Assembly (NCBI GenBank): GCA_964556325.1
Contig: CAZKVS010000002.1
Location: forward strand, 13,599 to 77,598
Source: an uncultured Candidatus Saccharibacteria bacterium
GTDB taxonomy: Bacteria; Patescibacteriota; Doudnabacteria; UBA920
Reading direction: 5' to 3'
Length of the DNA stretch: 64,000 nt
A model generated the notes under the pieces. That model did not search any database. It worked only from the letters and a program-made list of their open reading frames with translations, and was not told where the DNA came from. The position numbers and the translations under genes were made by a program. This document shows positions 6,522 to 62,452 of the stretch, piece by piece; positions within the stretch are counted from its first letter, which is position 1, and each line of letters starts with the position of its first letter.

Positions 6522-6603
6522 AATTCTAAATGCAAATTGCAAATTGTTGATTGTAGATTTAAAAGTGCGCCTGAATGAGCAATCTCAAATCTGCAATGTG
6601 CAA

Positions 6604-7044
6604 TTATTTTAGTGTTTCTTTAAGTACTTTTGAAAGCACGGCCCCGTCTGCAGAGGCGCCAAACTTTTCCTTCAATGCTTTCATTGCTAAGCCAAACTCT
6701 TTTGCCGTCCAACCGTTAGCAACGCTCAATTCTTGCACTGCAGCCGTAATCTCTTGCTCACTCACCTGTGCCGGTAAAAATTCAAGCAACACCTCTGCTT
6801 CCGCTTTTTCTGCCGCCGCAAGCTCTACCCTATTCCCCTTTATAAATTCACCTTCCGCTTCCTTGCGACGTTTATATTCAGACTGTATAACCGCCAAGAC
6901 GGCCGCTTCGGAAAGGTCCGAACCGGCCGCAATGCGTTCATTCTTTAATCGCGATAACAACATACGCAAAGTTCGAGAGGTAACTTCATCTCTCGCTTTT
7001 AAAGCGACACTCACTCGTTGCTCTAAATCTTGTATGGAAACCAT
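6604..7044 (-). CDS. yqeY: GatB/YqeY domain protein
   Basis: Similarity to the YqeY family ('RMLLSRLKNERIAAG'). The rpsU-yqeY pairing is conserved. Start taken at MVSIQ. Confidence 0.75.
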   Translation of the reverse strand: MVSIQDLEQRVSVALKARDEVTSRTLRMLLSRLKNERIAAGSDLSEAAVLAVIQSEYKRRKEAEGEFIKGNRVELAAAEKAEAEVLLEFLPAQVSEQEITAAVQELSVANGWTAKEFGLAMKALKEKFGASADGAVLSKVLKETLK

Positions 7045-11983: not shown

Positions 11984-12113
11984 CTCTTAAGCTCAAACCT
12001 CAACCCCTTAAGTATCTTGCCTAAATTCCCAATACCCAATTCTCAATTTCCAATGAAATGCTAAATTCTGGAAGTTAGAAATTGGAAATTGGTAATTGGA
12101 AATTTATTCTACT

Positions 12114-13535
12114 ATGTCTATCCCCATCGTCGCTATCGTCGGACCTCCAAACGCCGGCAAATCTACGTTATTTAATAAAATTATTGGCGAGATGAAAGCT
12201 GTCACTTCTGACGTAGCTGGTACAACTCGAGACCGCCAGTACGCCCCTACTGCTTGGAACGGGAGTGTCTTTGAACTTGTAGACACGGCGGGGTTGGATT
12301 CCCCCTCCACCCCATCTTCTAAAGGAGTACACTCTTCTTCCGCTGCTTTCAAAGGCGGAGCCAGGGGTGGTGAAAGCGAACTTGAAACGTCAGTCAACAA
12401 ACAAATAGACGTGGCCGCAAAAGAAGCACAGGTAATTGTTATGGTAGTGGATGGTAAGCTATCACCTGACAGCTTAGACCGGCAGGTGCTACTTAAATTT
12501 AGAAAATCCAAACAACCGGTAGTGTTGGCTATCAACAAACTCGACTCCCCTAAAAATTTAGAGGCTCTGACCGCAAGCTTCCTAAAACTAGGTTTAAAGG
12601 CCGTGTTCCCCGTTTCGTCAGTTACTGGCCGCGGCATTGGGGACATGCTCGACCATATTGTTTCCGTCCTCCCTGCAGCAAAACTAGACCCTAATCCCTT
12701 AGCACTTAGCCCTTCTACTGGCATTGCCGTGGCAATAGTTGGAAAGCCAAATGTGGGCAAGTCCAGCATTTTTAATCAAATCCTCAAAGACGAACGGGTC
12801 GTTGTGTCCAACGTACCGGGCACCACTCGCACTGCTATTGATAGCGAAATGACTATCAATGGTACCGACTACACGTTTATCGACACTGCGGGTCTCAAAA
12901 AGAAAGCCGCCAGACAAGCCCAACCAGACGTGTTCTCGAGCTACCAAACCTATAAATCTATCCGCCGAAGCGATGTCTGTTTCTTTGTTATCGACGCTAC
13001 TGAGGAAGTAACCAGCCAAGACCAATCCGTAGCCCAAGAAATTATTTCCCAAGAAAAAGGTTGTATTGTCTTAGTGAATAAAGTGGACCTGTACGACGCA
13101 GGGCAACAAAAAAAGAAAACCGTTGCCCTTCCTACCCGAGACAAACTCCAAGCCTACGTTTCCCACCACTTCCCTTTCCTCTGGATGTGCCCTGTATTCT
13201 TTGTATCCGGCAAAACAGGTGAAGGACTCAGCGAAGCTATCGCCGCTATTAACAAAATAGACGCCAGTCGAAAACAAGTCGTCGACCCTGAAGCGCTCAA
13301 AGATCTCCTTGCCCGACGAAAGAAACAAAACCCACCCAAGCGACTTATGGACCAAAAAGAGCCAAAGGTTTATAGTCTTGCCCAAGTGGAAACCAATCCG
13401 CCCAAGTTTGAACTCTTGGTTAACCATACGCCGGCCATTCAGGAGAACTTCCGGAAATCTGTAGAAAACGCCATCATCAAAGAACTCAACTTTTGGGGTA
13501 CTCCGATAAAAGTCCGACTTGTAAAGAAAGTGTAA
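12114..13535 (+). CDS. der: Ribosome-biogenesis GTPase Der/EngA (two GTPase domains plus KH)
   Basis: Two P-loops (GPPNAGKST and GKPNVGKSS), DTAGL motifs, C-terminal KH-like domain. Carries in-frame repeat-derived inserts (see findings). Confidence 0.9.
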   Translation: MSIPIVAIVGPPNAGKSTLFNKIIGEMKAVTSDVAGTTRDRQYAPTAWNGSVFELVDTAGLDSPSTPSSKGVHSSSAAFKGGARGGESELETSVNKQIDVAAKEAQVIVMVVDGKLSPDSLDRQVLLKFRKSKQPVVLAINKLDSPKNLEALTASFLKLGLKAVFPVSSVTGRGIGDMLDHIVSVLPAAKLDPNPLALSPSTGIAVAIVGKPNVGKSSIFNQILKDERVVVSNVPGTTRTAIDSEMTINGTDYTFIDTAGLKKKAARQAQPDVFSSYQTYKSIRRSDVCFFVIDATEEVTSQDQSVAQEIISQEKGCIVLVNKVDLYDAGQQKKKTVALPTRDKLQAYVSHHFPFLWMCPVFFVSGKTGEGLSEAIAAINKIDASRKQVVDPEALKDLLARRKKQNPPKRLMDQKEPKVYSLAQVETNPPKFELLVNHTPAIQENFRKSVENAIIKELNFWGTPIKVRLVKKV

Positions 13536-15547: not shown

Positions 15548-15596
15548 ATCATATGGGTCCTATCTGACCTATCTGACCTATCTGACCTATCTGACC
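15548..15596 (+). repeat. Tandem 9-bp repeat (CCTATCTGA) x about 4.5 upstream of the CapA-like gene
   Basis: Direct reading: gtCCTATCTGACCTATCTGACCTATCTGACCTATCTGAcctataaa, followed by a TATAAA -10-like box. Confidence 0.9.
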
Positions 15597-15623
15597 TATA
15601 AATTTTATTCCCTTATAGCAAAA

Positions 15624-16835
15624 ATGTCCCACAAACTTCTGCACCTTCTGTTTATTTTAATAATTGCGCTAACAATTACCAGCACAATAACTTTTGCGTT
15701 GCGCGACAAAAACCCGGAACGCCAGTCCGCTGACTCCAGCAAAACCCTAGACGATTACTTCACCCAAAGTCAAAGCCTCAAAAAAAATACCCTCACGGAA
15801 CAAGAAACCCATACCGTCACGCTCTTGGCAGTCGGCGATATTTCCTTATCTCGGAACATTGCCCAAACTATTAAAATAAAACAAGACCCGCTCTACCCAT
15901 TTCGAGGCATAGAGCCACTTTTACAGTCGACCGATTTCAACTTTGGCAACCTGGAAACCCCTTTTTCCAAGAGCGACGCCTTTACTCCAAATAACACCTT
16001 AGTCTTTAATGCCCCCAAAGCAAATGTGGCAGGTCTAAAAGCGTACAATTTTAAAGTTTTAAATCTGGCCAACAATCATGCTTTTGACCAAGGACTAAGC
16101 GGAGTACTTACCACTCGCAAAATCCTAGCAGACAACAATATACTTTTTACCGGCAGTGGTGAATCCTTAGATGAAGCATGGATGCCCGCTGTATATGAAA
16201 CAAACGGAATTAAGATAGGTTTCATTGGAGCCTCTTACTCCTCTATAAACGACGGAGGTAAAACCACCAACAACTACGTCGCCCGCATCGAAGACCTAGA
16301 CCGTCTCACGGCTCAAGTCTCATTTCTCAAGTCTCAAGCTGACTTCATAGTGGTCACCATGCACGCAGGAACTGAATACACCGCCACACCAAATGAAGCC
16401 CAAATCAAATTTGCTCACGCAGCCGTTGATGCGGGTGCCGATATAGTCATAGGCGCGCACCCCCACTGGGTACAGGAAAAAGAACTATACTGCCCCATTT
16501 CCGGTTCCTCCCCTTTCAAAGGGGAGGTTAGGTGGGATGAACATTCGCAGAATTCGGATGCTCATCCGTTGCATTCGGATTGTAAATGGATCTACTACTC
16601 ATTGGGCAACTTTATCTTCGACCAATCCTGGAGTGAACAAACCAAGAAGGGTTTAGCCCTTAAAATTACTCTTTCCAAAACGGGTACAAACTCACCCACG
16701 CTCAGCGGCGCCGCAACCCTCAATGACCTGCAACCCGCCGGCGGCAAGGAGAGACCTGAAACAAATCTAGATATTATCGAAGAAATCCCCATTTATATTA
16801 AAGGCAACTGCTGTCCAATAATTGCACCAAAATAA
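15624..16835 (+). CDS. CapA-family metallophosphatase (poly-gamma-glutamate synthesis-like), membrane-anchored, with an in-frame repeat insertion
   Basis: 'LLAVGD', 'NLANNHAFD', 'TMHAGTEY', 'GAHPHWVQ', 'YSLGNFIFD' CapA motifs. About 35 extra residues lie between HPHWVQ and YSLGNF, encoded by palindromic repeat DNA at 16495-16590. Confidence 0.7.
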   Translation: MSHKLLHLLFILIIALTITSTITFALRDKNPERQSADSSKTLDDYFTQSQSLKKNTLTEQETHTVTLLAVGDISLSRNIAQTIKIKQDPLYPFRGIEPLLQSTDFNFGNLETPFSKSDAFTPNNTLVFNAPKANVAGLKAYNFKVLNLANNHAFDQGLSGVLTTRKILADNNILFTGSGESLDEAWMPAVYETNGIKIGFIGASYSSINDGGKTTNNYVARIEDLDRLTAQVSFLKSQADFIVVTMHAGTEYTATPNEAQIKFAHAAVDAGADIVIGAHPHWVQEKELYCPISGSSPFKGEVRWDEHSQNSDAHPLHSDCKWIYYSLGNFIFDQSWSEQTKKGLALKITLSKTGTNSPTLSGAATLNDLQPAGGKERPETNLDIIEEIPIYIKGNCCPIIAPK

Positions 16836-17288: not shown

Positions 17289-19664
17289 ATGGCAAAGCCA
17301 TTAATAATAGTAGAGTCGCCTACCAAGGCGAAAACCATCAGCAAATTCCTCGCCGGCAAGTACGACGTTGAGGCGTCTTTTGGACATATCCGAGACTTAC
17401 CGAAAAGCAAAATTTCTATAGATGTTGAACACGATTTTGAACCGAAATACATCATCCCACCAAAAGCCTTAGAAACGGTCGCAAAGCTTAAAGCCCTCGC
17501 CAAGCATGCACCGGAAATCATCCTGGCGAGTGATGAGGACCGCGAAGGGGAATCCATTGCCTGGCACCTGGTCCAAGCTCTAGACTTAGATGAAAGCAAG
17601 CCGAAAAAGAAAGTTCGCCCAGATGATTCTAAAACAGACGAAGTGAAGGTGGATACAGACCGAGTCAAACGGATTGTTTTTCACGAAATTACCAAAACCG
17701 CCATTGATGAGGCGCTCGCCCACCCACGCTCCATAGACCAACGCATGGTAGACGCACAGCAAGCCAGGCGCGTGCTAGACAGGCTGGTAGGCTATGAACT
17801 TTCACCATTCTTGTGGCGTAAAATCCGCTACGGCCTTTCGGCCGGGCGTGTCCAGAGCGTAGCAGTACGACTAGTGGTTGAACGAGAACGAGAAATTCAA
17901 GTATTTGATAAAGAAGAATACTGGAGTATAGAAGCAAAGCTCTCTAAGCTCACCTCTTTTTCCCCCCTTCATGAGGGGGGGCTAGGGGGGGTATTTGTGG
18001 GCAGACTCTCTAAAATACACGACAAGTCGGTAGGTAAAATGGATATTAACTCCAAAACCGGTGCAGAGACTATTGTTGCAGACTTGAACGGTGCAGAGTA
18101 TATAGTTACAGATATTCAGAAAAAAGAGGTTAAGCGAAACCCTGCCGCTCCATTTACCACTTCTACACTGCAGCAAGAAGCAGCTCGCAAGCTTGGATTC
18201 TCTGCCAAGCAGACCATGATGATTGCCCAACAGTTGTACGAACATGGACACATTACCTATATGCGTACTGATAGCTTAAACTTAGCTGCAAGCGCTCTCA
18301 AGCAGGCTCAGGAGGTTATTGCAACTGAGTTCGGCAAACAATACGGCCTTGATACTCCTCGGCACTACACTAACAAATCCAAAGGCGCCCAAGAGGCACA
18401 CGAAGCTATTCGCCCCACAGACTTATCTCTCCTCCCTCAGAACTTCAAAGCGGGAGTTGCTGATAAAGGCCATGGTCGATTATATGATTTAATTTGGAAA
18501 CGCACCATTGCATCTCAAATGCAGCATGCTATATTCGACCAAACATCCGTGGACATTAGCGCTAAACACTATACATTTCGCGCTAATGGCCAAGTGGTGA
18601 AGTTTGATGGGTTCATACGCGCCTACACCGAAGGACAGGACGAGAAAGCAGAAGATGAAATTGAAGGCGTACTGCCCGAACTTTCTGCGGAAGAAAAGCT
18701 TAAACTACACGAGCTCCTCCCCCTGCAGCACTTTACTGAACCTCCGCCACGCTACACAGACGCCACCCTGGTGAAAGCTTTGGAAGCGAACGGTATTGGC
18801 CGGCCTTCTACGTACGCCCCTACTCTGGCCACCATCCAAGAACGAGACTATGTAACCAAAGAAGACAAGAAATACTCCCCCACTGAAGTTGGCTACTTAG
18901 TGAACGACATGCTGGTCGCAAACTTTCCGGAAATTGTGGACATCAACTTTACCGCCAAGGTAGAAGAAGACTTTGATAAAATCGCCGAAGGCGAAGAAGA
19001 CTGGGTAAAAGTTATCCGCGACTTCTATACTCCCTTCAAAAAACACTTGAACGAAAAAGAGGCAACGGTAGAAAAACAAGTAGAAACTTCTACTACTCCC
19101 TGCCCTCATTGCAGTAAAATGATGCTGATCAAGTTCGGCCGCATGGGTAAGTTCCTTGCCTGCCCTGACCCTGAGTCAAAAGTAACCATGCCGCTCCCTG
19201 AAGAAGCTGCCAAAATTGCTGAGCTAGAAGCAAAAACAGTTGGCGAAATTTGTCCTATATGCAGCAAACCCATGGAAGTTAAGCGCGGCCGCTTTGGTTA
19301 TTTTCTTGGGTGCGTAGACTACCCCAAGTGTAAAGGTATTGCTAAAATATGGAATAAAACTGGCTTTAAATGCCCGTCCTGTCTTGCATCCGATAGCCGT
19401 AAAGACAAACCGGGTGACGTAGTCGAAAAGAAATCCCGTGGCCGCGGTAAACCCTTCTTCGCCTGCACCCGCTGGCCAGACTGCGAATTTATTGCCAACC
19501 TAAAACCGGAGAGTGAGGCCCATCTCCAAGAACTTTATAAAATCTGGTTAGAAAATAAGGATAAGCCAAAAACCGGCAAAAAGTTTGCTCGTAAAACCGC
19601 AACTAAGAAGTCAACTAAAAAAACTACGAAAACATCCGCTGCAGAAAAAACCGTCGAGGCCTAG
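17289..19664 (+). CDS. topA: DNA topoisomerase I
   Basis: TOPRIM N-terminus 'LIIVESPTKAKTISKFL', active-site region, C-terminal C4 zinc ribbons (CPHC...CP, CPIC, CPSC) and a Lys-rich tail. 791 aa. Confidence 0.95.
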   Translation: MAKPLIIVESPTKAKTISKFLAGKYDVEASFGHIRDLPKSKISIDVEHDFEPKYIIPPKALETVAKLKALAKHAPEIILASDEDREGESIAWHLVQALDLDESKPKKKVRPDDSKTDEVKVDTDRVKRIVFHEITKTAIDEALAHPRSIDQRMVDAQQARRVLDRLVGYELSPFLWRKIRYGLSAGRVQSVAVRLVVEREREIQVFDKEEYWSIEAKLSKLTSFSPLHEGGLGGVFVGRLSKIHDKSVGKMDINSKTGAETIVADLNGAEYIVTDIQKKEVKRNPAAPFTTSTLQQEAARKLGFSAKQTMMIAQQLYEHGHITYMRTDSLNLAASALKQAQEVIATEFGKQYGLDTPRHYTNKSKGAQEAHEAIRPTDLSLLPQNFKAGVADKGHGRLYDLIWKRTIASQMQHAIFDQTSVDISAKHYTFRANGQVVKFDGFIRAYTEGQDEKAEDEIEGVLPELSAEEKLKLHELLPLQHFTEPPPRYTDATLVKALEANGIGRPSTYAPTLATIQERDYVTKEDKKYSPTEVGYLVNDMLVANFPEIVDINFTAKVEEDFDKIAEGEEDWVKVIRDFYTPFKKHLNEKEATVEKQVETSTTPCPHCSKMMLIKFGRMGKFLACPDPESKVTMPLPEEAAKIAELEAKTVGEICPICSKPMEVKRGRFGYFLGCVDYPKCKGIAKIWNKTGFKCPSCLASDSRKDKPGDVVEKKSRGRGKPFFACTRWPDCEFIANLKPESEAHLQELYKIWLENKDKPKTGKKFARKTATKKSTKKTTKTSAAEKTVEA

Positions 19665-19678
19665 CCCGACGGTTTTTT
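19646..19678 (+). terminator. Terminator overlapping the topA stop (AAAAACCGTCGAGGC-ctagc-CCGACGGTTTTTT)
   Basis: Hairpin plus T-run. A near-identical copy lies at 21587-21620. Confidence 0.75.
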
Positions 19679-19830
19679 GTATATCACACGCATTGCCCCC
19701 GCGTCCTATTAGTCCTATCTGTCGTATCGGTCCTATCTGTCGTATGCATCCAATTAGTCCTATGTGGGCACCAAACCCACAAAAGAATCAACACACCTAC
19801 CCGCCTCCTACACTCATTCGTCACTAATGA

Positions 19831-20708: not shown

Positions 20709-21605
20709 TTGATATGGACATGCTACTGTATGTGCATGATCTTAACTACTCCAACCAGCATCGAAGACCACATCGTCTCTCTCTTACGAGACGGACCCAT
20801 TGGCACCGTAGAACTTATTTCGCATATTAGAAAATATTTACCAAAAGCTACAAAACAAGCCGTCTATGCTGCACTTCGAAAACTGAAGGGTCAGGAGGTT
20901 GTAGTCGTGCACAACAAACAAGCGTCACTTAGCATACAATGGCTACGAAAGCTGGAATTGTTTGTAAACATTGCCGAAGAACGGTCATTCGATGCTGAGT
21001 CACGTTCAAATGGAATTTTAGCGCTCACGAATGGAGACCGGATTGAGTACCATTTTAAAAATGCCCACCTCATGGACTCGTTTTGGTGGCATGCATCTGC
21101 CTTACTTCTGGAAACACAATCCGCCCAAGAGCCTGTTTACATATACCACACCCACGAATGGTTTCTTCACGCAAGGCGAAACACTGAGCTAGGCTTCATA
21201 CGGTATATAAAAGATAATCGTCGTACGCTCTTTCTGGCAGTAAGCAGGAACACACCGTTGGACAAACTGGCAGCCAAAGACTTTGATGGAACCACGGCCC
21301 AATATTACATGTATTCAGTGTCTCCGTTCCCCAAGAACAACTACTACCTAAATGTATTTAACGACTATATATTTGAAGTCTGGCTGGATAAAAGCATGTC
21401 GAGCGAACTAGATGCGCTATATCGTAACACCAAAACTATCACCCCAGAAATTCTAGAACAGATTAAATCCCTAACAAGCAAACCAGGAAAAAGTCGCATG
21501 ATAATTTCCCGCAACACAAAACGGGCAGAAAAACTTAAAAAGTTACTTGGTAAACACTTCTTCGTACCAAAAGAGTATCGCTCTAAAAAAACCGTCGAGG
21601 CGTAA
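20709..21605 (+). CDS. Hypothetical protein with a predicted N-terminal winged-helix domain
   Basis: 'IVSLLRDGPIGTVELISHIRKY...AVYAALRKLKGQEVVVV' resembles a wHTH. The rest is unrecognised. Start uncertain (20709 or 20736). Ends 'KTVEA' inside the shared terminator. Confidence 0.5.
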   Translation: MIWTCYCMCMILTTPTSIEDHIVSLLRDGPIGTVELISHIRKYLPKATKQAVYAALRKLKGQEVVVVHNKQASLSIQWLRKLELFVNIAEERSFDAESRSNGILALTNGDRIEYHFKNAHLMDSFWWHASALLLETQSAQEPVYIYHTHEWFLHARRNTELGFIRYIKDNRRTLFLAVSRNTPLDKLAAKDFDGTTAQYYMYSVSPFPKNNYYLNVFNDYIFEVWLDKSMSSELDALYRNTKTITPEILEQIKSLTSKPGKSRMIISRNTKRAEKLKKLLGKHFFVPKEYRSKKTVEA

Positions 21606-21620
21606 GCCCGACGGTTTTTA
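21587..21620 (+). terminator. Terminator (duplicate of the topA terminator)
   Basis: AAAAAACCGTCGAGGC-gtaag-CCCGACGGTTTTTA. Confidence 0.7.
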
Positions 21621-27445: not shown

Positions 27446-27511
27446 GATTTTACTGAAAAAACTTACAAACTTAACTGCCAAAACACTATCAATACTTTAA
27501 AAAAAGAACTT

Positions 27512-27545
27512 ATATCTATTTCTGACGGCCGTCAGAAATAGATAT
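27512..27545. repeat. 34-bp perfect palindrome ATATCTATTTCTGACGGCCGTCAGAAATAGATAT (encodes the C-terminus and stop of the PaaX-like gene)
   Basis: Read directly. Core TGACGGCCGTCA. Between convergent genes, so it probably acts as a bidirectional terminator. Confidence 0.85.
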
Positions 27546-28091
27546 AAGCCTACGAAATTGCTTACGCAAATCTGCATCAGTGTCAAAAGCATCTACGCGA
27601 GCAAAACGGATATATCGAGTTAATCCGGAAGCTTTGAGATACGCTATACTGGCCGAACTAAGAGCAAAGGGTTGCACATATACACTAGCCTGCAAAGCCA
27701 CAAACCCATAACCTTTAAGTAGGTTCCGGAGCCTGGCCCTTACTCCCCTTGCGTGTTCCGGTATGTCAAAAATTGCCAAACGCCACTTTCCGTCCCAACG
27801 TTGGGAATGTACATCAAGTTTTGATTTTTCAAACAAAGCTTCAAGCTGACCCTTATTTGTCAATACAAGCACCTTTTTAGCCTCGCCATATTCAAACTTT
27901 AACCAGCCCTGCCGTTTGAGACGCTGTATGGTAGTCTCGAGCTTTCTGCCGGCAACGTATTTTCTATATTCAGGATAGAGCGCCGTACTTAGTTTTCCTA
28001 ACATACTGACTTTTTGTATCTGCCCGCCCGCCTCTAAGAGAGCCAATAATATCTGACTCGTAACAGTCATTCTTTTCTTATCACGGTTCAT
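27516..28091 (-). CDS. PaaX-family-like transcriptional regulator (truncated: wHTH plus WDGKW domain)
   Basis: N-terminal winged-helix-like region, then 'WDGKWRLAIFDIPE...RLRNLLKGYGFVALQASVYVQP', which matches the PaaX middle-domain pattern (WDGKW...GFG.L..S). 191 aa, against about 310 for PaaX. Confidence 0.55.
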   Translation of the reverse strand: MNRDKKRMTVTSQILLALLEAGGQIQKVSMLGKLSTALYPEYRKYVAGRKLETTIQRLKRQGWLKFEYGEAKKVLVLTNKGQLEALFEKSKLDVHSQRWDGKWRLAIFDIPEHARGVRARLRNLLKGYGFVALQASVYVQPFALSSASIAYLKASGLTRYIRFARVDAFDTDADLRKQFRRLISISDGRQK

Positions 28092-28123
28092 ACATTTATT
28101 TTTATTGTTTCCTTTAAATTGTT

Positions 28124-28159
28124 ATAGCTAAAAATGACGGCCGTCATTTTTAGCTATAA
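28124..28159. repeat. 36-bp perfect palindrome TATAGCTAAAAATGACGGCCGTCATTTTTAGCTATA between the PaaX-like start and the dnaJ end
   Basis: Read directly. Same TGACGGCCGTCA core as the palindrome at 27512-27545. Candidate operator and/or dnaJ terminator. Confidence 0.85.
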
Positions 28160-28201
28160 GATGCATATAAAGATGAATGCAAAAAAGACAAAAGACAGCT
28201 G

Positions 28202-33321: not shown

Positions 33322-33352
33322 ACGTCATGTCCAAAATTAATTCTGGTCAATT

Positions 33353-34114
33353 TTATTTAATTATGGTCAATAATATTATTGCTGCGCCTCCCCCACCCAA
33401 CAGCTTTGCAATATACTCCATCAAGCCCATATTCTTCTCGTATTTCATGGACTTTGGGCCAAGCAAGCCTACTACACCCTGTTTACCATCTGGTAATTGT
33501 ACGCCTGAGACTATCATAGAGTAGTCGCTCTTTTCGGACAGCTTTACTTCTTTTCCTATCACTGCTTGCGCACTGCCATTGGCGTAGTCTCGCATCATGT
33601 TTTCCGCGTGTTCGTCTATGTTGTCAAAAAAACGAGCAATCTCTCGAGCATCTTCCGGTGGTAAGGCAGGATTATCTAAAATATTCGCCAAACCCATAGT
33701 AGAAGTATCGCCGGGGAACAAAGCAAAGCTGGCCTGTTCAGAACTGTCTGCCAAGAGCTTGGCAAGCCTTCGGCCCACCTCGGCATTTACCACCTGCAAC
33801 TTTACTACTTCCTTCCGTAAGCGATCTTGCTCTTTCATAGAGAGCTTTACTCGCTCCATAAGCTCGCTCACAAAATACCGAAAGCCCATGTCGGTTGGTA
33901 CCCGACCGGCTGAGGTATGCGGCTGCATAATGTAGCCCTCTTTTTCCAGCACTTGCATCTCGTTACGAATAGTAGCACCGGACAAGTCAAAATAGTCTTT
34001 GTCGACTAAATCTTTGCTCGCCACCGGCACACCAGTATCGCAGTTTTCTTTTACTATTGCGGCCAATATTCTGGCTTGGCGCTGAGTTATTTCTGGGTAG
34101 TTTGCCATACTCAT
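33353..34114 (-). CDS. hrcA: Heat-inducible transcription repressor HrcA (short form)
   Basis: N-terminal wHTH 'ITQRQARILAAIVKENCDTGVPVASKDL' typical of HrcA. Gene order hrcA-grpE-dnaK-dnaJ. CIRCE element immediately upstream. Confidence 0.8.
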   Translation of the reverse strand: MSMANYPEITQRQARILAAIVKENCDTGVPVASKDLVDKDYFDLSGATIRNEMQVLEKEGYIMQPHTSAGRVPTDMGFRYFVSELMERVKLSMKEQDRLRKEVVKLQVVNAEVGRRLAKLLADSSEQASFALFPGDTSTMGLANILDNPALPPEDAREIARFFDNIDEHAENMMRDYANGSAQAVIGKEVKLSEKSDYSMIVSGVQLPDGKQGVVGLLGPKSMKYEKNMGLMEYIAKLLGGGGAAIILLTIIK

Positions 34115-41561: not shown

Positions 41562-41813
41562 AGGAAAGTGGATAGTGACTAGTGGACAGTGACTAGTATA
41601 CAAACCTGTACACTGTTCACTGGTAACTGTCTACTGTTACTTATACTAACGTACACCTTAGCATAAAAATGACAAAGATTCAAGACTCTAGAAAATTATT
41701 CATGAAAACTTAATATAAATAAAAAAAGACGAGCACACCTGCACTCGTCACCAGTAAACTGGATTTTCAAAGAGCTTACTAGACTGAGGATTACCCAGCC
41801 AGGTTATTAACTG

Positions 41814-42781: not shown

Positions 42782-44941
42782 ATGGCACAAATGGCCGAAT
42801 TAAAGCAACAAATTACTCACTTCCCCCACCAGCCTGGATGCTACCTGTTTCGGGACGCCACGGGCTTAGTTTTGTACGTGGGCAAAGCCAAAGACTTGCG
42901 GAAACGAGTCAGCCAGTACTTTGGACAGGACAAACGACCGCAGCTACCGTTCTTAATCGAGGACGCCTCAGACATAGACTATATAGTAGCCCGTACTGAG
43001 CTTGAAGCACTGTTTCTAGAAAACACGCTCATTAAAAAACACAACCCGAAGTACAACATAAAGCTTAAGGACGATAAAAACTACGCGTTCATTGCCATAG
43101 ACTACTCCACTCAAATTCCTCAAATTGGGTATGTACGGAAAATTACTGACGCATCCGACTTTACCCCGTTTGTAAACCCATCCGCTTCTTGGGGCAGTGG
43201 CAAGCATGAGCGTAAGACGCTCAAGTGGAAAGGGAAAAGTGGAAAGGGAAAAGTGGATTCCAAATCTTCAGGTCTACAACCTACAACCTACAACCTACAA
43301 CCTAGTTCTTACTTTGGTCCGTATTCATCAGTTAAAAAAATTCGGGAGACGCTCGACTTCGTACGAAAAATATTTCCCTACTGTGCTAACACGGAAGTAA
43401 GTGGTCGGCCTTGTTTTTACTATCACTTACACCGCTGTCCCGGCGTATGCGTGGGTGCGGTTTCTTTGGAGGAATACCAAAAAAGTTTGGCTCGCATTAA
43501 ACTCTTTCTCAACGGCAAAACAACAGAGATTAAAAAAGAGCTTAAAACGAGCATGGAGTATGCAGCGGAAACCAAACGATTTGAGTTGGCCGCGCGACTG
43601 CGCGACCAGCTGCGCGCACTTGAGTTACTAGACGAGCGACAAATTGCCCAGTTCCCCACCAGAGTAGACTACGACTTTATTTCCCTCGCTACGCAAAACC
43701 ATTTGCGGTGCGTCAACCTGTTTAAAGTGCGCGGCGGCAAACTGACCGACAAAGAAAACTTTATATACACCGCTCCTACGGATTTAAAACTAGAAGCTAG
43801 CAGCTGGAAGCTAGAAGCTATTATTCAGACCTTTGCGGAAACCTACTACGCAGAAACCACAGATTTACCCAGCGCAGTTTTTACCCAACACCCACTCACA
43901 GATACCCCATTAATAGATGAACTCCTCAAACATCGGAAAGGTAAAAGGGTTACCCTCTCTGTTCCCCGCCGTGGGAAGGCACACCAACTTATTAAACTTG
44001 GCCAGGTAAATGCTGAAGAATGTTTACGCAAAACCCTCGCCACAGACGCGACTGATTCTGATAAAATCCAAGATTCCCTAGAGAAGCTACAGAAGCTTTT
44101 GAAGCTTGCCCAGCTGCCCCGACGGATTGAGTGCTATGACATGTCTAACACCCAAGGCACTAACCCTGTAGGCAGCATGGTTGTTTTTATAGATGGCAAA
44201 CCCGCTAAAGGTGAATACCGTAAATTTAAGATTCGCTCCAAAGACACCCCCGACGACTTTGCTATGATGCGTGAGACGTTATCCAGACGGCTCCGCCGTC
44301 TGAACCCTCCCCCTCTTGAGGGGGAGATGGAGGGGGTCATAGTGAAAGATAAAAATGGTAAAGACATCAAAGAACCAAATCATTCTATGACCTCCCCTAA
44401 CCCCTCCTCAAGAGGAGGGGAACAAATGCCATGGCCGCGACCCGACTTAATAGTAATAGACGGAGGTAAAGGCCAGCTCTCTGCTGCGCTCGAAGCGCAG
44501 GAACAAGTCGAAGGTCATCAAGTCGAAAGTCAAAAGTCGAAAATCCGAGATGATAACCCAGATGGCACCCTGCCCCCTAACCCCTTAGCCCTTAGCCCTA
44601 TCCCAATGATTGGATTAGCAAAAAGGATCGAAGAAATATTTCTCCCCCACAATCCCGAACCAATTGTGCTGAGTCATGACCACCCTTCTCTCCAACTTCT
44701 CCAACGTTTACGTGACGAGGCACATCGCTTTGGCATAACCTTCCACCGCAGCCTCCGTAGTAAGCAAGCCACCAAATCCGCACTCGACACTATTCCGGGC
44801 ATTGGCCCTAAAACAAAAAAACTCCTAAAACAGAAGTTTGGCACAGTAAGTGCGATTAAGAAAATCGCACTAGAAGAAATAGAAAAGTTAGAAGAATTAG
44901 TAGGCAAAACTAAAGCCGGTATTATAAAAAAGAATTTGTAG
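42782..44941 (+). CDS. uvrC: Excinuclease ABC subunit C, expanded (723 aa) by several in-frame repeat-derived insertions
   Basis: GIY-YIG N-terminus ('GCYLFRDATGLVLYVGKAKDLRKRVSQYF'), UvrBC-interaction region, RNase H-like endonuclease ('IDGGKGQL', 'GLAKRIEEIF'), C-terminal HhH. ATG at 42782 preferred over the TTG at 42767. Confidence 0.9.
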   Translation: MAQMAELKQQITHFPHQPGCYLFRDATGLVLYVGKAKDLRKRVSQYFGQDKRPQLPFLIEDASDIDYIVARTELEALFLENTLIKKHNPKYNIKLKDDKNYAFIAIDYSTQIPQIGYVRKITDASDFTPFVNPSASWGSGKHERKTLKWKGKSGKGKVDSKSSGLQPTTYNLQPSSYFGPYSSVKKIRETLDFVRKIFPYCANTEVSGRPCFYYHLHRCPGVCVGAVSLEEYQKSLARIKLFLNGKTTEIKKELKTSMEYAAETKRFELAARLRDQLRALELLDERQIAQFPTRVDYDFISLATQNHLRCVNLFKVRGGKLTDKENFIYTAPTDLKLEASSWKLEAIIQTFAETYYAETTDLPSAVFTQHPLTDTPLIDELLKHRKGKRVTLSVPRRGKAHQLIKLGQVNAEECLRKTLATDATDSDKIQDSLEKLQKLLKLAQLPRRIECYDMSNTQGTNPVGSMVVFIDGKPAKGEYRKFKIRSKDTPDDFAMMRETLSRRLRRLNPPPLEGEMEGVIVKDKNGKDIKEPNHSMTSPNPSSRGGEQMPWPRPDLIVIDGGKGQLSAALEAQEQVEGHQVESQKSKIRDDNPDGTLPPNPLALSPIPMIGLAKRIEEIFLPHNPEPIVLSHDHPSLQLLQRLRDEAHRFGITFHRSLRSKQATKSALDTIPGIGPKTKKLLKQKFGTVSAIKKIALEEIEKLEELVGKTKAGIIKKNL

Positions 44942-46205: not shown

Positions 46206-46487
46206 GTAGACTCCTTGTTTTGTGTTGGTGATTAACCAGAATAGCGTTCTACCAAGCGCTTTCTAATTAATCGGATTGTGAAAGAACTACGTAGGTTTTG
46301 GCGGTAGAGAATAAAGCTCTTAAGTAAGCGCTATTCTCTGCGGCCAAACTTAACATTACTATATATTATACGACATATATGTATATATGTCAAGATTGAC
46401 CAATACCCCCTGTTTCCCGTATGCTAAATGAGCTTAAGTGGCATTTTCTGTTCACTTTCCACTTTTCACTATTCACTAGTTCTAAAA

Positions 46488-60176: not shown

Positions 60177-60716
60177 ATGCCGCGATATGAGTTGTGCTAC
60201 ATCCTCGCCGCCGGAGTCAGCGATGACCAGGTCCCCGAGGTAGCCACCCAAATTCAGAAGTTTATCACCGACTTCGGTGGTACCGATATCCAAGAAGAAC
60301 TCTTGGGTAAAAAGAAACTTGCCTACCCTATTAAGAAAACCCGTAACGGTTTTTATGTGGTAGAAACCTTTACCATGCCTGCGAATAAAATAAACGACTT
60401 GGAAGCAAAGGTTCGCTCCCAAACCGCAACGGTTATTCGTCACCTTATCATAAACGTAGACGAACACTTGGTTCGCAGCGAAAAAGACAAAGTTGCTCAG
60501 AGCAAACTGACCAAGCAAGCACCTGAAGGTGAGCAAGACCAACCGCAGGCCCCACGTCCTGCCCCAGCCGCTGCGCCGGTTGCGCGACCTGAACCAGTTC
60601 CAACACCTAAAGTGGAACCAGTAAAAGATGAAGTAAAAGAAATTGCCAAAGAGCTTTCCACCGAAGAGTTGGACAAGCAGATTGAAGCTGCGTTGTCCGA
60701 TGATCTTATTAAGTAA
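60177..60716 (+). CDS. rpsF: 30S ribosomal protein S6 with an Ala/Pro/Glu-rich C-terminal extension
   Basis: 'MPRYELCYILAAGVSDDQVPEV...KKLAYPIKKTRNGFYVV' S6 fold. Confidence 0.85.
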   Translation: MPRYELCYILAAGVSDDQVPEVATQIQKFITDFGGTDIQEELLGKKKLAYPIKKTRNGFYVVETFTMPANKINDLEAKVRSQTATVIRHLIINVDEHLVRSEKDKVAQSKLTKQAPEGEQDQPQAPRPAPAAAPVARPEPVPTPKVEPVKDEVKEIAKELSTEELDKQIEAALSDDLIK

Positions 60717-60790
60717 TTGATCAAAATTAAGTAAAATTGACCATAATTGTCCATAATTTAAATGGCAATTTTGAACAATTTTGAACAATT
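60717..60790 (+). repeat. AT-rich intergenic repeat R1 (TTGAYCAWAATT word family) upstream of ssb
   Basis: TTGATCAAAATT...TTGACCATAATTGTCCATAATTT...CAATTTTGAACAATT. Related to R2 and R3. Confidence 0.8.
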
Positions 60791-60806
60791 AATTAAATTA
60801 AAATCT

Positions 60807-61280
60807 ATGGATTTAAACAAAGTCATGATTATTGGCCGGCTCACGCGAGACCCGGAACTTCGCTCTACACCAAACGGCGCGAGTGTGTGTCAGCTTTCTC
60901 TTGCTACCAATTACGTATACACCAACCCACAAACCAGTCAAAAGGTAGAACAGGTTGAATATCACAACGTAGTACTCTGGCGAAAGTTGGCGGAGATTGC
61001 TAGCCAATACTTGAAAAAAGGCCGACGTGTATACATTGAAGGCCGCTTACAAACCCGAAGCTGGGATGGCCAGGACGGTAAGAAAAACTACCGCACGGAA
61101 ATTATTGCCGACAACATGATTATGTTAGACGGCGGTACTCCAGGTGCCACGAGCGGAAGCGCACCGTTTGCTAAACCAGCCGGCCCCGCACAAGAAGGCG
61201 GCGACCAGTCCATTGTGGACGAAGAGTTCCCTACCATCCAAGCCGAAGAAAACATTAAAGTAGAAGATATACCTTTTTAA
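60807..61280 (+). CDS. ssb: Single-stranded DNA-binding protein
   Basis: OB-fold 'MIIGRLTRDPELRSTPNGASVCQLSLATN...HNVVLWRKLAE' and a C-terminal '...DIPF' tail. Confidence 0.85.
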   Translation: MDLNKVMIIGRLTRDPELRSTPNGASVCQLSLATNYVYTNPQTSQKVEQVEYHNVVLWRKLAEIASQYLKKGRRVYIEGRLQTRSWDGQDGKKNYRTEIIADNMIMLDGGTPGATSGSAPFAKPAGPAQEGGDQSIVDEEFPTIQAEENIKVEDIPF

Positions 61281-61366
61281 TTGACCAAAATTAAATAAAA
61301 TTGTACACAATTGTCCATAATTTAGAATGGCAATTTTGAACAATTATGGTCAATTCTGATCAATTT
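61281..61366 (+). repeat. AT-rich 86-bp repeat R2 with 12-bp terminal inverted repeats (TTGACCAAAATT ... AATTATGGTCAA) upstream of rpsR
   Basis: Nearly identical to R3 over about 85 nt. Confidence 0.85.
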
Positions 61367-61617: not shown

Positions 61618-61622
61618 GCTAA

Positions 61623-61707
61623 TTGACCAAAATTAAATAAAATTGTACACAATTGTCCATAATTTAGAATGGCAATTTTGAACAATTATGGTCAATTCTG
61701 ATCAATT
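61623..61707 (+). repeat. AT-rich repeat R3 (copy of R2) upstream of efp
   Basis: Identical to R2 from TTGACCAAAATT through ...CAATTCTGATCAATT. Confidence 0.85.
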
Positions 61708-62334: not shown

Positions 62335-62352
62335 CAGTCTTTTCTCTTCTCC

Positions 62353-62382
62353 CTCCCCTTTCTAAGGGGAGGCTAGGTGGGG
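62353..62382 (+). repeat. Intergenic copy of the GC-rich palindromic element (CTCCCCTTTCTAAGGGGAG plus GCTAGGTGGGG)
   Basis: Same architecture as the in-frame copies at 16507, 17961, 44307 and 42517. Confidence 0.8.
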
Positions 62383-62385
62383 TGA

Positions 62386-62452
62386 AGTTGTCCAAAACAA
62401 AAAGACGTGTCTTGCTGATACTGTGGGTATGAATCCACAACATCAGCAAGCT
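62386..62452. terminator. Long imperfect inverted repeat (AAGACGTGTCTTGCTGAT ... ATCAGCAAGCTCACGTCTT) flanked by A-runs and T-runs
   Basis: About 18-bp arms and a 22-nt loop between convergent efp and the 62489 gene. Confidence 0.55.

Follow-up and report, generated by a model that had tools for sequence, protein, structure and literature searches.

A short in-frame repeat is found in both der and uvrC, two genes on a 64-kb stretch of a Candidatus Doudnabacteria genome (Patescibacteria/Candidate Phyla Radiation, CPR; assembly GCA_964556325.1, contig CAZKVS010000002.1, positions 13,599 to 77,598), referred to here as the window. Homologs of Der, UvrC and UvrB are the basis for this placement. 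The repeat had been described in an initial annotation as an element common to the two genes, and this is borne out by the degenerate 25-mer CCCTAAYCCCTTAGCMCTTAGCCCT, which has exactly two matches in the window, at 12689-12713 and 44575-44599, both on the + strand. No match was obtained in any of 100 dinucleotide-preserving shuffles of the window, even with three mismatches permitted. The der and uvrC copies are identical at 23 of the 25 positions of the motif and differ by T/C and A/C; the earlier figure of about 24/27 is slightly generous, the identity over that span being 23/27. Both host open reading frames (ORFs) are intact, and translation gives the peptides reported before, LDPNPLALSPSTG for copy 1 (der) and LPPNPLALSPIPM for copy 2 (uvrC), the former between the two GTPase domains of Der, as had been stated. 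The identical Der 25-mer is present in three independent assemblies of the same species (97-99.5% DNA identity) and is therefore not an assembly artefact.

Anatomy of the CCCTTAG arrays

The period of the repeat is 7 and not 6, the common layout being (CTNNNCC)(CTAAYCC)(CTTAGCM)(CTTAGCC)CT. In the other register the Der copy reads CCCTAAT CCCTTAG CACTTAG CCCT and the uvrC copy CCCTAAC CCCTTAG CCCTTAG CCCT, or 3.6 units. Both were detected as period-7 repeats at 75% self-identity, and each falls below the Tandem Repeats Finder (TRF) threshold of 30; they are short, imperfect heptamer arrays. Since three units make 21 nt, or seven codons, CCCTTAG is translated into the same cyclic peptide, PLALSP*, in any phase. 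A perfect array thus contains an in-frame TAG every 21 nt, and the length of perfect repeat that an ORF can accommodate is limited to about 20 nt. The changes that break the TAG are AAT or AAC (Asn) on the upstream side and, on the downstream side, CCT followed by TCT (der) or ATC (uvrC). The in-frame placement of the copies and their shared imperfection, CCCTAAY, are accounted for by unit length and selection against stops. As both are forced, neither is independent evidence for common descent, and the argument that the shared imperfection proves such descent was dropped, CCCTAAY being what removal of the in-frame TAG leaves in the cyclic translation. The unit CTAGAAG behaves similarly: its cyclic translation is LEARS*K, with the stop exchanged for TGG, TAT or TCT in different lineages.

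In an AlphaFold2 (AF2) model of Der with a mean predicted local distance difference test (pLDDT) score of 75, the array corresponds to residues 191-203, a coil between helix 175-185 and strand 204-210, and the array peptide (residues 190-200) has pLDDT values below 50. The same is true of a second lineage-specific insert in Der, residues 61-91. In distant UvrC orthologs, the loops that carry the arrays are short or missing. Both copies, then, sit where extra residues are tolerated, a disordered linker in Der and a loop in UvrC, and the PNPLALSP peptide probably has no specific function beyond that of a flexible Pro/Leu/Ala/Ser spacer.

DNA folds of both strands showed no Watson-Crick structure above the chance level for either copy (z -1.0 to +0.1). 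On its antisense strand the uvrC copy carries four or more G3 tracts, and this strand provides one of just two canonical G-quadruplex (G4) motifs in the window; there are four such tracts in the Der array of the relative L120. A G-quadruplex was rejected as a property common to both copies, as the Der antisense strand has three G tracts only. The other canonical G-quadruplex motif of the window (GGGGGGGCTAGGGGGGGTATTTGTGGG) lies on the + strand inside topA, at 17975-18001.

Three further candidates were discarded. Telomeric repeats occupy the ends of chromosomes as long runs of TTAGGG (6 nt) or TTTAGGG (7 nt). The copies had initially been described as telomere-like C-strand hexamers, a description that fails: the unit is the heptamer CCCTTAG (complement CTAAGGG), one of about 20 heptamer units in the window, and each copy lies inside an ORF and has a single CCCTAA hexamer in its 3.6 units. 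Diversity-generating retroelements are characterized by a template/variable repeat pair of about 100 nt that differs at adenines, with a reverse transcriptase nearby. Here the match is only 25 nt long, the differences are those given above, and no reverse transcriptase was found in the 10 ORFs scanned. A phase-variable contingency locus, in which the copy number of an SSR varies and switches the reading frame, usually of a surface or restriction gene, was excluded as well; the hosts are der and uvrC, and their reading frame is intact in all relatives and same-species assemblies examined.

The same 25-mer occurs in frame in the UvrB of another Doudnabacteria contig, L243 (LSPNPLALSPS). At this site UvrB orthologs have LSPKPLALSP or LSPKTLAFSP, and others have different inserts with a seven-residue period. 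The array is also present in frame (SLSPNPLALSPK) in an ORF of a metagenome contig with a GC content of 0.40 (L213, 3043-4131), whose translated sequence suggests a CsaB-like (polysaccharide pyruvyl transferase-like) protein.

Period-7 arrays in the window and in relatives

The CCCTTAG arrays belong to a much larger set. With a threshold of 85% self-identity over three units, 14 period-7 arrays were found in the window, compared with 0.2 expected from Markov shuffles; at 75% self-identity the numbers are 23 and 1.2. Periods of 8 and 11 are at chance level, and smaller excesses were observed for periods 6, 9 and 10 at the 75% threshold. Many period-7 arrays, with about 20 different units in the window, were reported independently by TRF. 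The density in the relatives L119-L126 is equal, at 2-13 period-7 arrays per 10 kb. About 15 of 24 arrays are intergenic, though intergenic DNA makes up only about 17% of the sequence, and about 9 of 24 lie in genes, an assignment made by hand from the Pfam annotation of syntenic relatives, including that of the arrays at 6581-6604, 41563-41584 and 46448-46481. Five of the genic arrays are in uvrC, and there is one each in der, a PGA_cap-family gene, the C-terminal tail of dnaK and a HIT gene, the last being weak. The intergenic arrays often form inverted pairs that fold as hairpins. Two intergenic arrays of period 9 with related units were also noted, at 15559-15599 (after dprA) and 19703-19763 (after topA); the units are CCTATCTGA (4.6 copies, 100% perfect) and GTCCTATCA (6.8 copies).

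Table 1. Host genes and heptamer arrays of the window, and the arrays at the der and uvrC sites of relatives
Feature	Position	Strand	Description
der (ribosome biogenesis GTPase Der/EngA), host of copy 1	12114-13535	+	TIGR03594, 407 bits
uvrC (excinuclease ABC subunit C), host of copy 2	42782-44941	+	TIGR00194, 528 bits
der inter-domain linker array	12684-12718	+	CTAGACC CTAATCC CTTAGCA CTTAGCC CTTCTAC; encodes L191-DPNPLALSPST
uvrC C-terminal loop array	44570-44604	+	CTGCCCC CTAACCC CTTAGCC CTTAGCC CTATCCC; encodes LPPNPLALSPI
Second array of uvrC C-terminal loop	44505-44546	+	(AAGTCGA)n; (ATTTCCA)n at this site in L119 and L126
uvrC mid-gene array	43787-43823	+	CTAGAAG CTAGCAG CTGGAAG CTAGAAG CTAT (LKLEASSWKLEAI); 36/37 identical in L119
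Two adjacent uvrC N-terminal arrays	43223-43308	+	(AAGTGGA/AAGGGAA)n at 43223-43257; (CTACAAC)4.4 at 43271-43308, read LQPTTYNLQP
PGA_cap-family gene, in-frame array	16302-16339	+	(AGTCTCA)n; 38 nt in window, L120 and L121
Intergenic inverted pair upstream of der	12024-12105	+	(AATTCCC)n and (TGGAAAT)n; hairpin z = -3.2
uvrC site, window			CTGCCCC CTAACCC CTTAGCC CTTAGCC
uvrC site, L119			CTAAAAG CTAACAG CTGGAAG CTAGAAG
uvrC site, L123			CTAAAAG CTAACAG CTATAAG CTAAAAG
uvrC site, L125			CTAGAAG CTAACAG CTCTAAG CTAGCAG
uvrC site, L126			CTACAGC CTACAAC CTATCAG CTACAAC
uvrC site, L124			CTCTCAC CTCTTAC CTCTCAC CTACCCA
Der linker, window and P0362			AAKLDPNPLALSPSTG; family CCCTTAG
Der linker, P0001/L120			...PTPLALSP...; family CCCTTAG
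Der linker, P0363			...PKPLALNP...; family CCCTTAG
Der linker, P0361			TAEQEETRDKRQETGS; family AAGAGAC (cyclic reading)
Der linker, P0364			TAEREATSDKQQATSS; other family
Der linker, P0368			KSEAEEKKEAKKEMNT; other family

Arrays of the CCCTTAG unit are not confined to these genomes. With the loose 18-mer CCCTTAGCMCTTAGCCCT, (CCCTTAG)n arrays of 3-30 units were found at no fewer than 118 loci in species-representative genomes from many unrelated phyla, and the full 25-mer was in none of these matches. The relaxed pattern CCCTANNCCCTTAGCNCTNAGCCCT matched at least 120 metagenome contigs; among those listed, most are long CCCTAAA/CCCTAAG arrays, which from their sequence look like algal telomeres or bacterial simple sequence repeats (SSRs), and the informative ones are a few low-GC contigs (L243 and L213, described above).

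Turnover of arrays at the der and uvrC sites

The linker between the GTPase domains is hypervariable among Der orthologs. It is 16 residues long in seven members of one 90% cluster, in which it is made of different heptamer families (Table 1). Between the window and L120 the der DNA is 82% identical and the Der array is conserved at 22 of 26 positions, which indicates that the Der copy is old and stable. The codon that replaces the TAG is Asn in both window copies and Thr (ACA, L120) or Lys (AAG, P0363) in the orthologous Der arrays. Alignment of orthologs shows the segment to be lineage specific in both genes; it is absent or replaced in most orthologs of both Der and UvrC.

Other rearrangements were seen in and around der. 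In L121 (10480-10570), a 33-nt insert that contains a palindrome (ACCCGTCTCGACTCGGGAGTCGACCCGAGGCGG, peptide TRLDSGVDPRR) splits the (AAGAGAC)4 array of the linker, which is uninterrupted in P0361. Two unrelated alleles are known of the region upstream of der (11985-12111; 1741-1829 in L247), in which the heptamer arrays are paired and inverted. That of the window is common to L121 and L122 (77% DNA identity), and the contigs L247-L249, of the same species as the window (flanks 97-99.5%), have the allele of L120. A second small repeat consists of the hairpin CCTCCCCTTTCAAAGGGGAGG followed by TTAGGTGGGATGAA. Its two good copies, at 16507-16541 and 62352-62386, are 91% identical, and a degenerate copy lies inside der at 12340-12374, in a 21-residue insert within residues 61-91 (AAFKGGARGG); this is probably what the initial annotation counted as its first in-frame element. 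Hairpins related to CCTCCCCTTTCAAAGGGGAGG are also found in inserts of relatives, in the middle of uvrC in L124 (SSPPKIGGARGG) and in the Der linker of P0003 (PLSKGELEGV).

At the C-terminal site of uvrC, four units in the same register directly precede the conserved CTATTCCCATGATT (IPMI) in all six genomes compared, and five different families are represented. The CTNNAAG type is common to three lineages, one of them distant, which makes the CCCTTAG array of the window the derived one; in the window lineage it took the place of an older array of the CTAGAAG type. No other lineage among 15 aligned orthologs has a CCCTTAG array at this site. Conservation of the uvrC arrays between the window and L119 is bimodal. 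The arrays at 43223-43257, 43271-43308 and 43787-43823 are identical at 35/35, 36/38 and 36/37 positions, respectively, with flanks of 84-94% identity, and in the 36/38 array an identical T>C change, present in two neighbouring units of L119, accounts for both mismatches. The two adjacent C-terminal arrays, on the other hand, belong to unrelated families. Within uvrC of L119, the mid-gene and C-terminal arrays have 29 identical nucleotides in common, AAGCTAACAGCTGGAAGCTAGAAGCTATT, a stretch in which the order of the irregular units CTAACAG and CTGGAAG is also preserved. An independent origin of such a match is very unlikely, and heptamer arrays can therefore template one another.

The heptamer arrays evolve in concert: a unit resembles the others of its array more closely than it does units at the equivalent position in other species. 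At the uvrC site the mean unit identity is 5.14/7 within arrays and 4.03/7 at the same position between species, a difference reached in 0 of 5000 permutations; the corresponding counts are 22 of 5000 for the PGA_cap site and 181 of 5000 for the der linker. At the PGA_cap site the unit changes from AGTCTCA (window) to AATCTCA (L120) and AAACTAM (L121), always within 38 nt. As lengths are constant at the best-sampled sites, the process is one of homogenisation and not of simple expansion and contraction.

Taken together, these results are probably best explained by regarding the CCCTTAG array as a member of a population of period-7 SSRs in this genome and its relatives, which evolves in concert with occasional copying between arrays. 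The 25-mer is neither a discrete mobile element nor telomere-like. The first steps are shown by the data. With three units making 21 nt, an array inside a gene encodes the cyclic peptide in any phase, and the flanking units have lost the in-frame TAG so that some 20 nt of perfect array remain. The arrays are located where additional residues can be accommodated, as in the Der linker and the uvrC loop, and orthologous sites keep period and register, and at the three best-sampled sites also length, with unit sequence varying between species. The further steps are inferred. Homogenisation may proceed by out-of-register (7-nt) pairing in replication or repair, followed by correction, and selection would purge length changes that break the frame. 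At uvrC, a CTAGAAG-type array may have been overwritten by template switching at short homologies or by gene conversion, with another CCCTTAG array as template and the older Der array as a candidate for it. This last step, in which a different CCCTTAG array served as template for the uvrC copy, is about as likely as not.

Several observations weigh against this interpretation. Slippage predicts length polymorphism, and yet lengths are constant (16 residues in seven Der proteins, four units in each of the six genomes compared for uvrC, and 38 nt at the PGA_cap site in three), although within ORFs slippage could be masked by selection against frameshifts. Direct evidence for templating of uvrC by Der is thin: with the family and the need to avoid stops taken into account, a single informative character is left, the Asn codon that the two copies share. 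Moreover, AAC is found at the same codon position in the older uvrC arrays of L119, L123 and L125, which fits a patchy change in situ equally well. The wide distribution of (CCCTTAG)n in unrelated bacteria makes independent convergence plausible, and the counts of arrays describe a 64-kb window and not the whole genome.

That each of the two arrays, in der and in uvrC, originated or drifted at its own site onto a favoured CCCTTAG unit, with nothing moving between the genes, is a possibility of some substance, though a doubtful one. The unit might be favoured by a C-rich coding strand, by DNA prone to slippage or to G4/i-motif formation, or by a tolerated Pro/Leu/Ala/Ser peptide. Such convergence would agree with the occurrence of the unit and its close variants in many phyla and metagenome contigs, with the gradual drift of units at constant length at the PGA_cap site and with the AAC codon of the older uvrC arrays. 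The stop constraint also pushes any copy inside an ORF toward two central perfect units with broken units on each side, and the chance that 23 arrays drawn from about 1170 heptamer classes have one class in common is estimated at about 0.2. However, three other uvrC arrays are at least 95% identical to those of L119 and the CCCTTAG array differs at five of seven unit positions, a pattern that resembles an event more than drift. Both window copies also made the two-step change from TAG to AAY, in place of the ACA or AAG of the orthologous Der arrays, copying between sites is demonstrated in the clade by uvrC of L119, and the recurrence of array families at non-orthologous sites exceeds what is predicted by a composition-aware estimate. 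Import of an allele, in which the uvrC loop (about 44500-44604) with both its arrays was gained by homologous recombination from another Doudnabacteria lineage, is unlikely. It would explain why both adjacent arrays changed together in a gene that otherwise has 85% identity to that of L119, and there is a parallel in the two unrelated cassette alleles upstream of der, whose distribution across species suggests that whole array-bearing segments were exchanged or sorted across species boundaries. But no donor with CCCTTAG at the uvrC site is present among the 15 aligned orthologs, and import only shifts the question of how the array first originated at that site.

The initial annotation had inferred a mobile or recombining sequence. 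Recombination is made plausible by the block replacement and homogenisation of arrays and by the copying between sites in L119; mobility finds no such support. A discrete element of 25-28 nt, transposed or homing with the help of a trans-acting enzyme in the manner of cyanobacterial small dispersed repeats (SDRs), miniature inverted-repeat transposable elements or repetitive extragenic palindromic sequences, is very improbable, even though the 25-mer is in frame in three unrelated Doudnabacteria genes (der, uvrC and the UvrB gene of L243) as well as in the CsaB-like ORF, and one genuine small insertion is known in this system, the palindromic 33-nt element in the L121 linker. The copies have neither inverted termini nor a hairpin (z near 0), no target-site duplication accompanies either of them, and their flanks differ. 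Their edges grade into degenerate units of period 7, relatives hold another array of the same length at both sites so that no empty site was found, and there are only two copies in 64 kb. Pfam scans of 10 window ORFs gave no transposase or reverse transcriptase, and neither enzyme is among the Pfam domains annotated in syntenic relatives. Selection of PNPLALSP as a functional motif in both proteins is harder still to credit and can nearly be dismissed. In its favour, PLALSP is kept between species at 82% der DNA identity with two synonymous changes. But a DNA periodicity of 7 nt is not explicable by selection at the codon level, the peptide is the cyclic translation of CCCTTAG, most orthologs have unrelated peptides of the same length in place of the segment, and the segment is a low-confidence coil in the Der model. 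The initial view that the similarity originated in the DNA, and not by convergent evolution of the proteins, is thus upheld.

To return to the population of heptamer arrays evolving in concert, a broader form of this interpretation can be considered. In Doudnabacteria, and perhaps other CPR bacteria, a period-7 process might rewrite loops of Der, UvrB, UvrC, PGA_cap and the DnaK tail as heptamer cassettes with length and frame kept. This generalization is speculative and rather unlikely; if true, it would amount to loop turnover in housekeeping proteins driven by DNA repeats, distinct both from length-changing slippage and from transposition.

Relation to known heptamer repeats and other window features

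Heptanucleotide repeats are known as the commonest long simple repeats of bacteria and have been described as intergenic and of unknown origin. In the present case heptamer arrays are translated within essential proteins of a reduced CPR genome and evolve in concert at fixed length. Limited literature searches returned no account of heptamer arrays from Patescibacteria, nor of arrays in housekeeping genes that are translated and evolve in concert. The arrays provide a concrete case for the origin of lineage-specific insertions in CPR proteins and for the homogenisation of tandem repeats where frameshifts are lethal. In practical terms, heptamer segments give unrelated proteins a spurious resemblance and can distort alignments as well as searches for homologs and mobile elements.

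Two repeat classes of cyanobacteria are comparable. The short tandemly repeated repetitive (STRR) sequences, reportedly described by Mazel and colleagues in 1990, are said to be tandem heptanucleotide families (CCCCAGT, TTGGTCA and CAACAGT) at many loci of heterocystous cyanobacteria, mainly intergenic and with their spread unexplained. Membership of this class was rejected, as unit and taxon differ and only the architecture of tandem heptamers is in common. The SDRs of Nostoc, reportedly the subject of work by Elhai and colleagues in 2008, are said to be 21-27 nt long, to occupy many sites, sometimes in genes, and to be associated with tandem heptameric repeats. In L121, the der heptamer array is split by a 33-nt palindromic insert that is similar to them. 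The CCCTTAG 25-mer, in contrast, is itself a heptamer array and not a unit inserted in one, and lacks defined ends.

Among the long SSRs of prokaryotes, heptamers form the most abundant class, for which polymerase slippage has been hypothesized (Mrazek 2007, as summarized in PMC4692102 and PMC4679880). As far as these summaries go, the window arrays resemble the prokaryotic heptanucleotide SSRs in having head-to-tail units of 7 nt, mostly 3-5 copies, many units per genome and intergenic enrichment, and in the over-representation of period 7 far above the other periods tested. At least three head-to-tail units and a period-7 excess were indeed found here, and length polymorphism between close relatives was not. 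The window arrays further differ from the SSRs so summarized in that about 9 of 24 are in genes, in frame in conserved housekeeping genes, in the constant length of orthologous arrays, and in the CPR host. The SSRs in these summaries, and likewise the G-rich and TAACTGA repeats discussed next, are mainly intergenic (PMC4692102, PMC4679880).

The G-rich heptamers GGGAATC of Xanthomonas and GGGGAYT of Nostoc show a preference for four units, inverted pairs of arrays and G-quadruplex potential, and their loci are shared by related species, with sequences that vary (Rehm et al. 2015, PMC4692102). CCCTTAG is likewise a heptamer with a G3/C3 tract, and there are at least four G3 tracts on the uvrC antisense strand. 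Here, however, the C-rich strand is the coding strand of ORFs, and with three G3 tracts in the Der copy G4 potential is not common to both arrays. The TAACTGA direct repeats of Beggiatoaceae and cyanobacteria have one dominant unit, are located mostly just upstream of start codons and were proposed to be binding sites of a regulator (MacGregor 2015, PMC4679880). The argument that a heptamer yields a cyclic peptide of seven residues, with stops limiting the overlap with coding sequence, was made for these repeats too (PMC4679880). In the window, by contrast, there are many units, and some arrays lie inside ORFs with the stops mutated away.

Further repeats were noted in the window. An AT-rich repeat of 88 nt occurs three times, at 60714-60801, 61278-61365 and 61620-61707, with two of the copies 100% identical; the repeats flank ssb (60762-61280) and precede efp. 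They contain CAATTNTGNN units with a period of 10 nt and inverted TTGACCATAATT-like motifs, and a related motif is found at 33339-33371. These repeats could be iterons, operators or sites similar to DnaA boxes; no switch in GC skew was seen in the window. Two perfect or near-perfect palindromes of 40 nt, at 27509-27548 and 28122-28160 (CTTATATCTATTTCTGACGG/CCGTCAGAAATAGATATAAG; the other 74% related), bracket a PaaX-like gene (27516-28091). Finally, nearly identical hairpins with GC stems and A and T tails (AAAAAACCGTCGAGGC..GCCCGACGGTTTTTT) are located at two gene ends, at 19645-19678 and 21586-21619, and their form suggests bidirectional intrinsic terminators.

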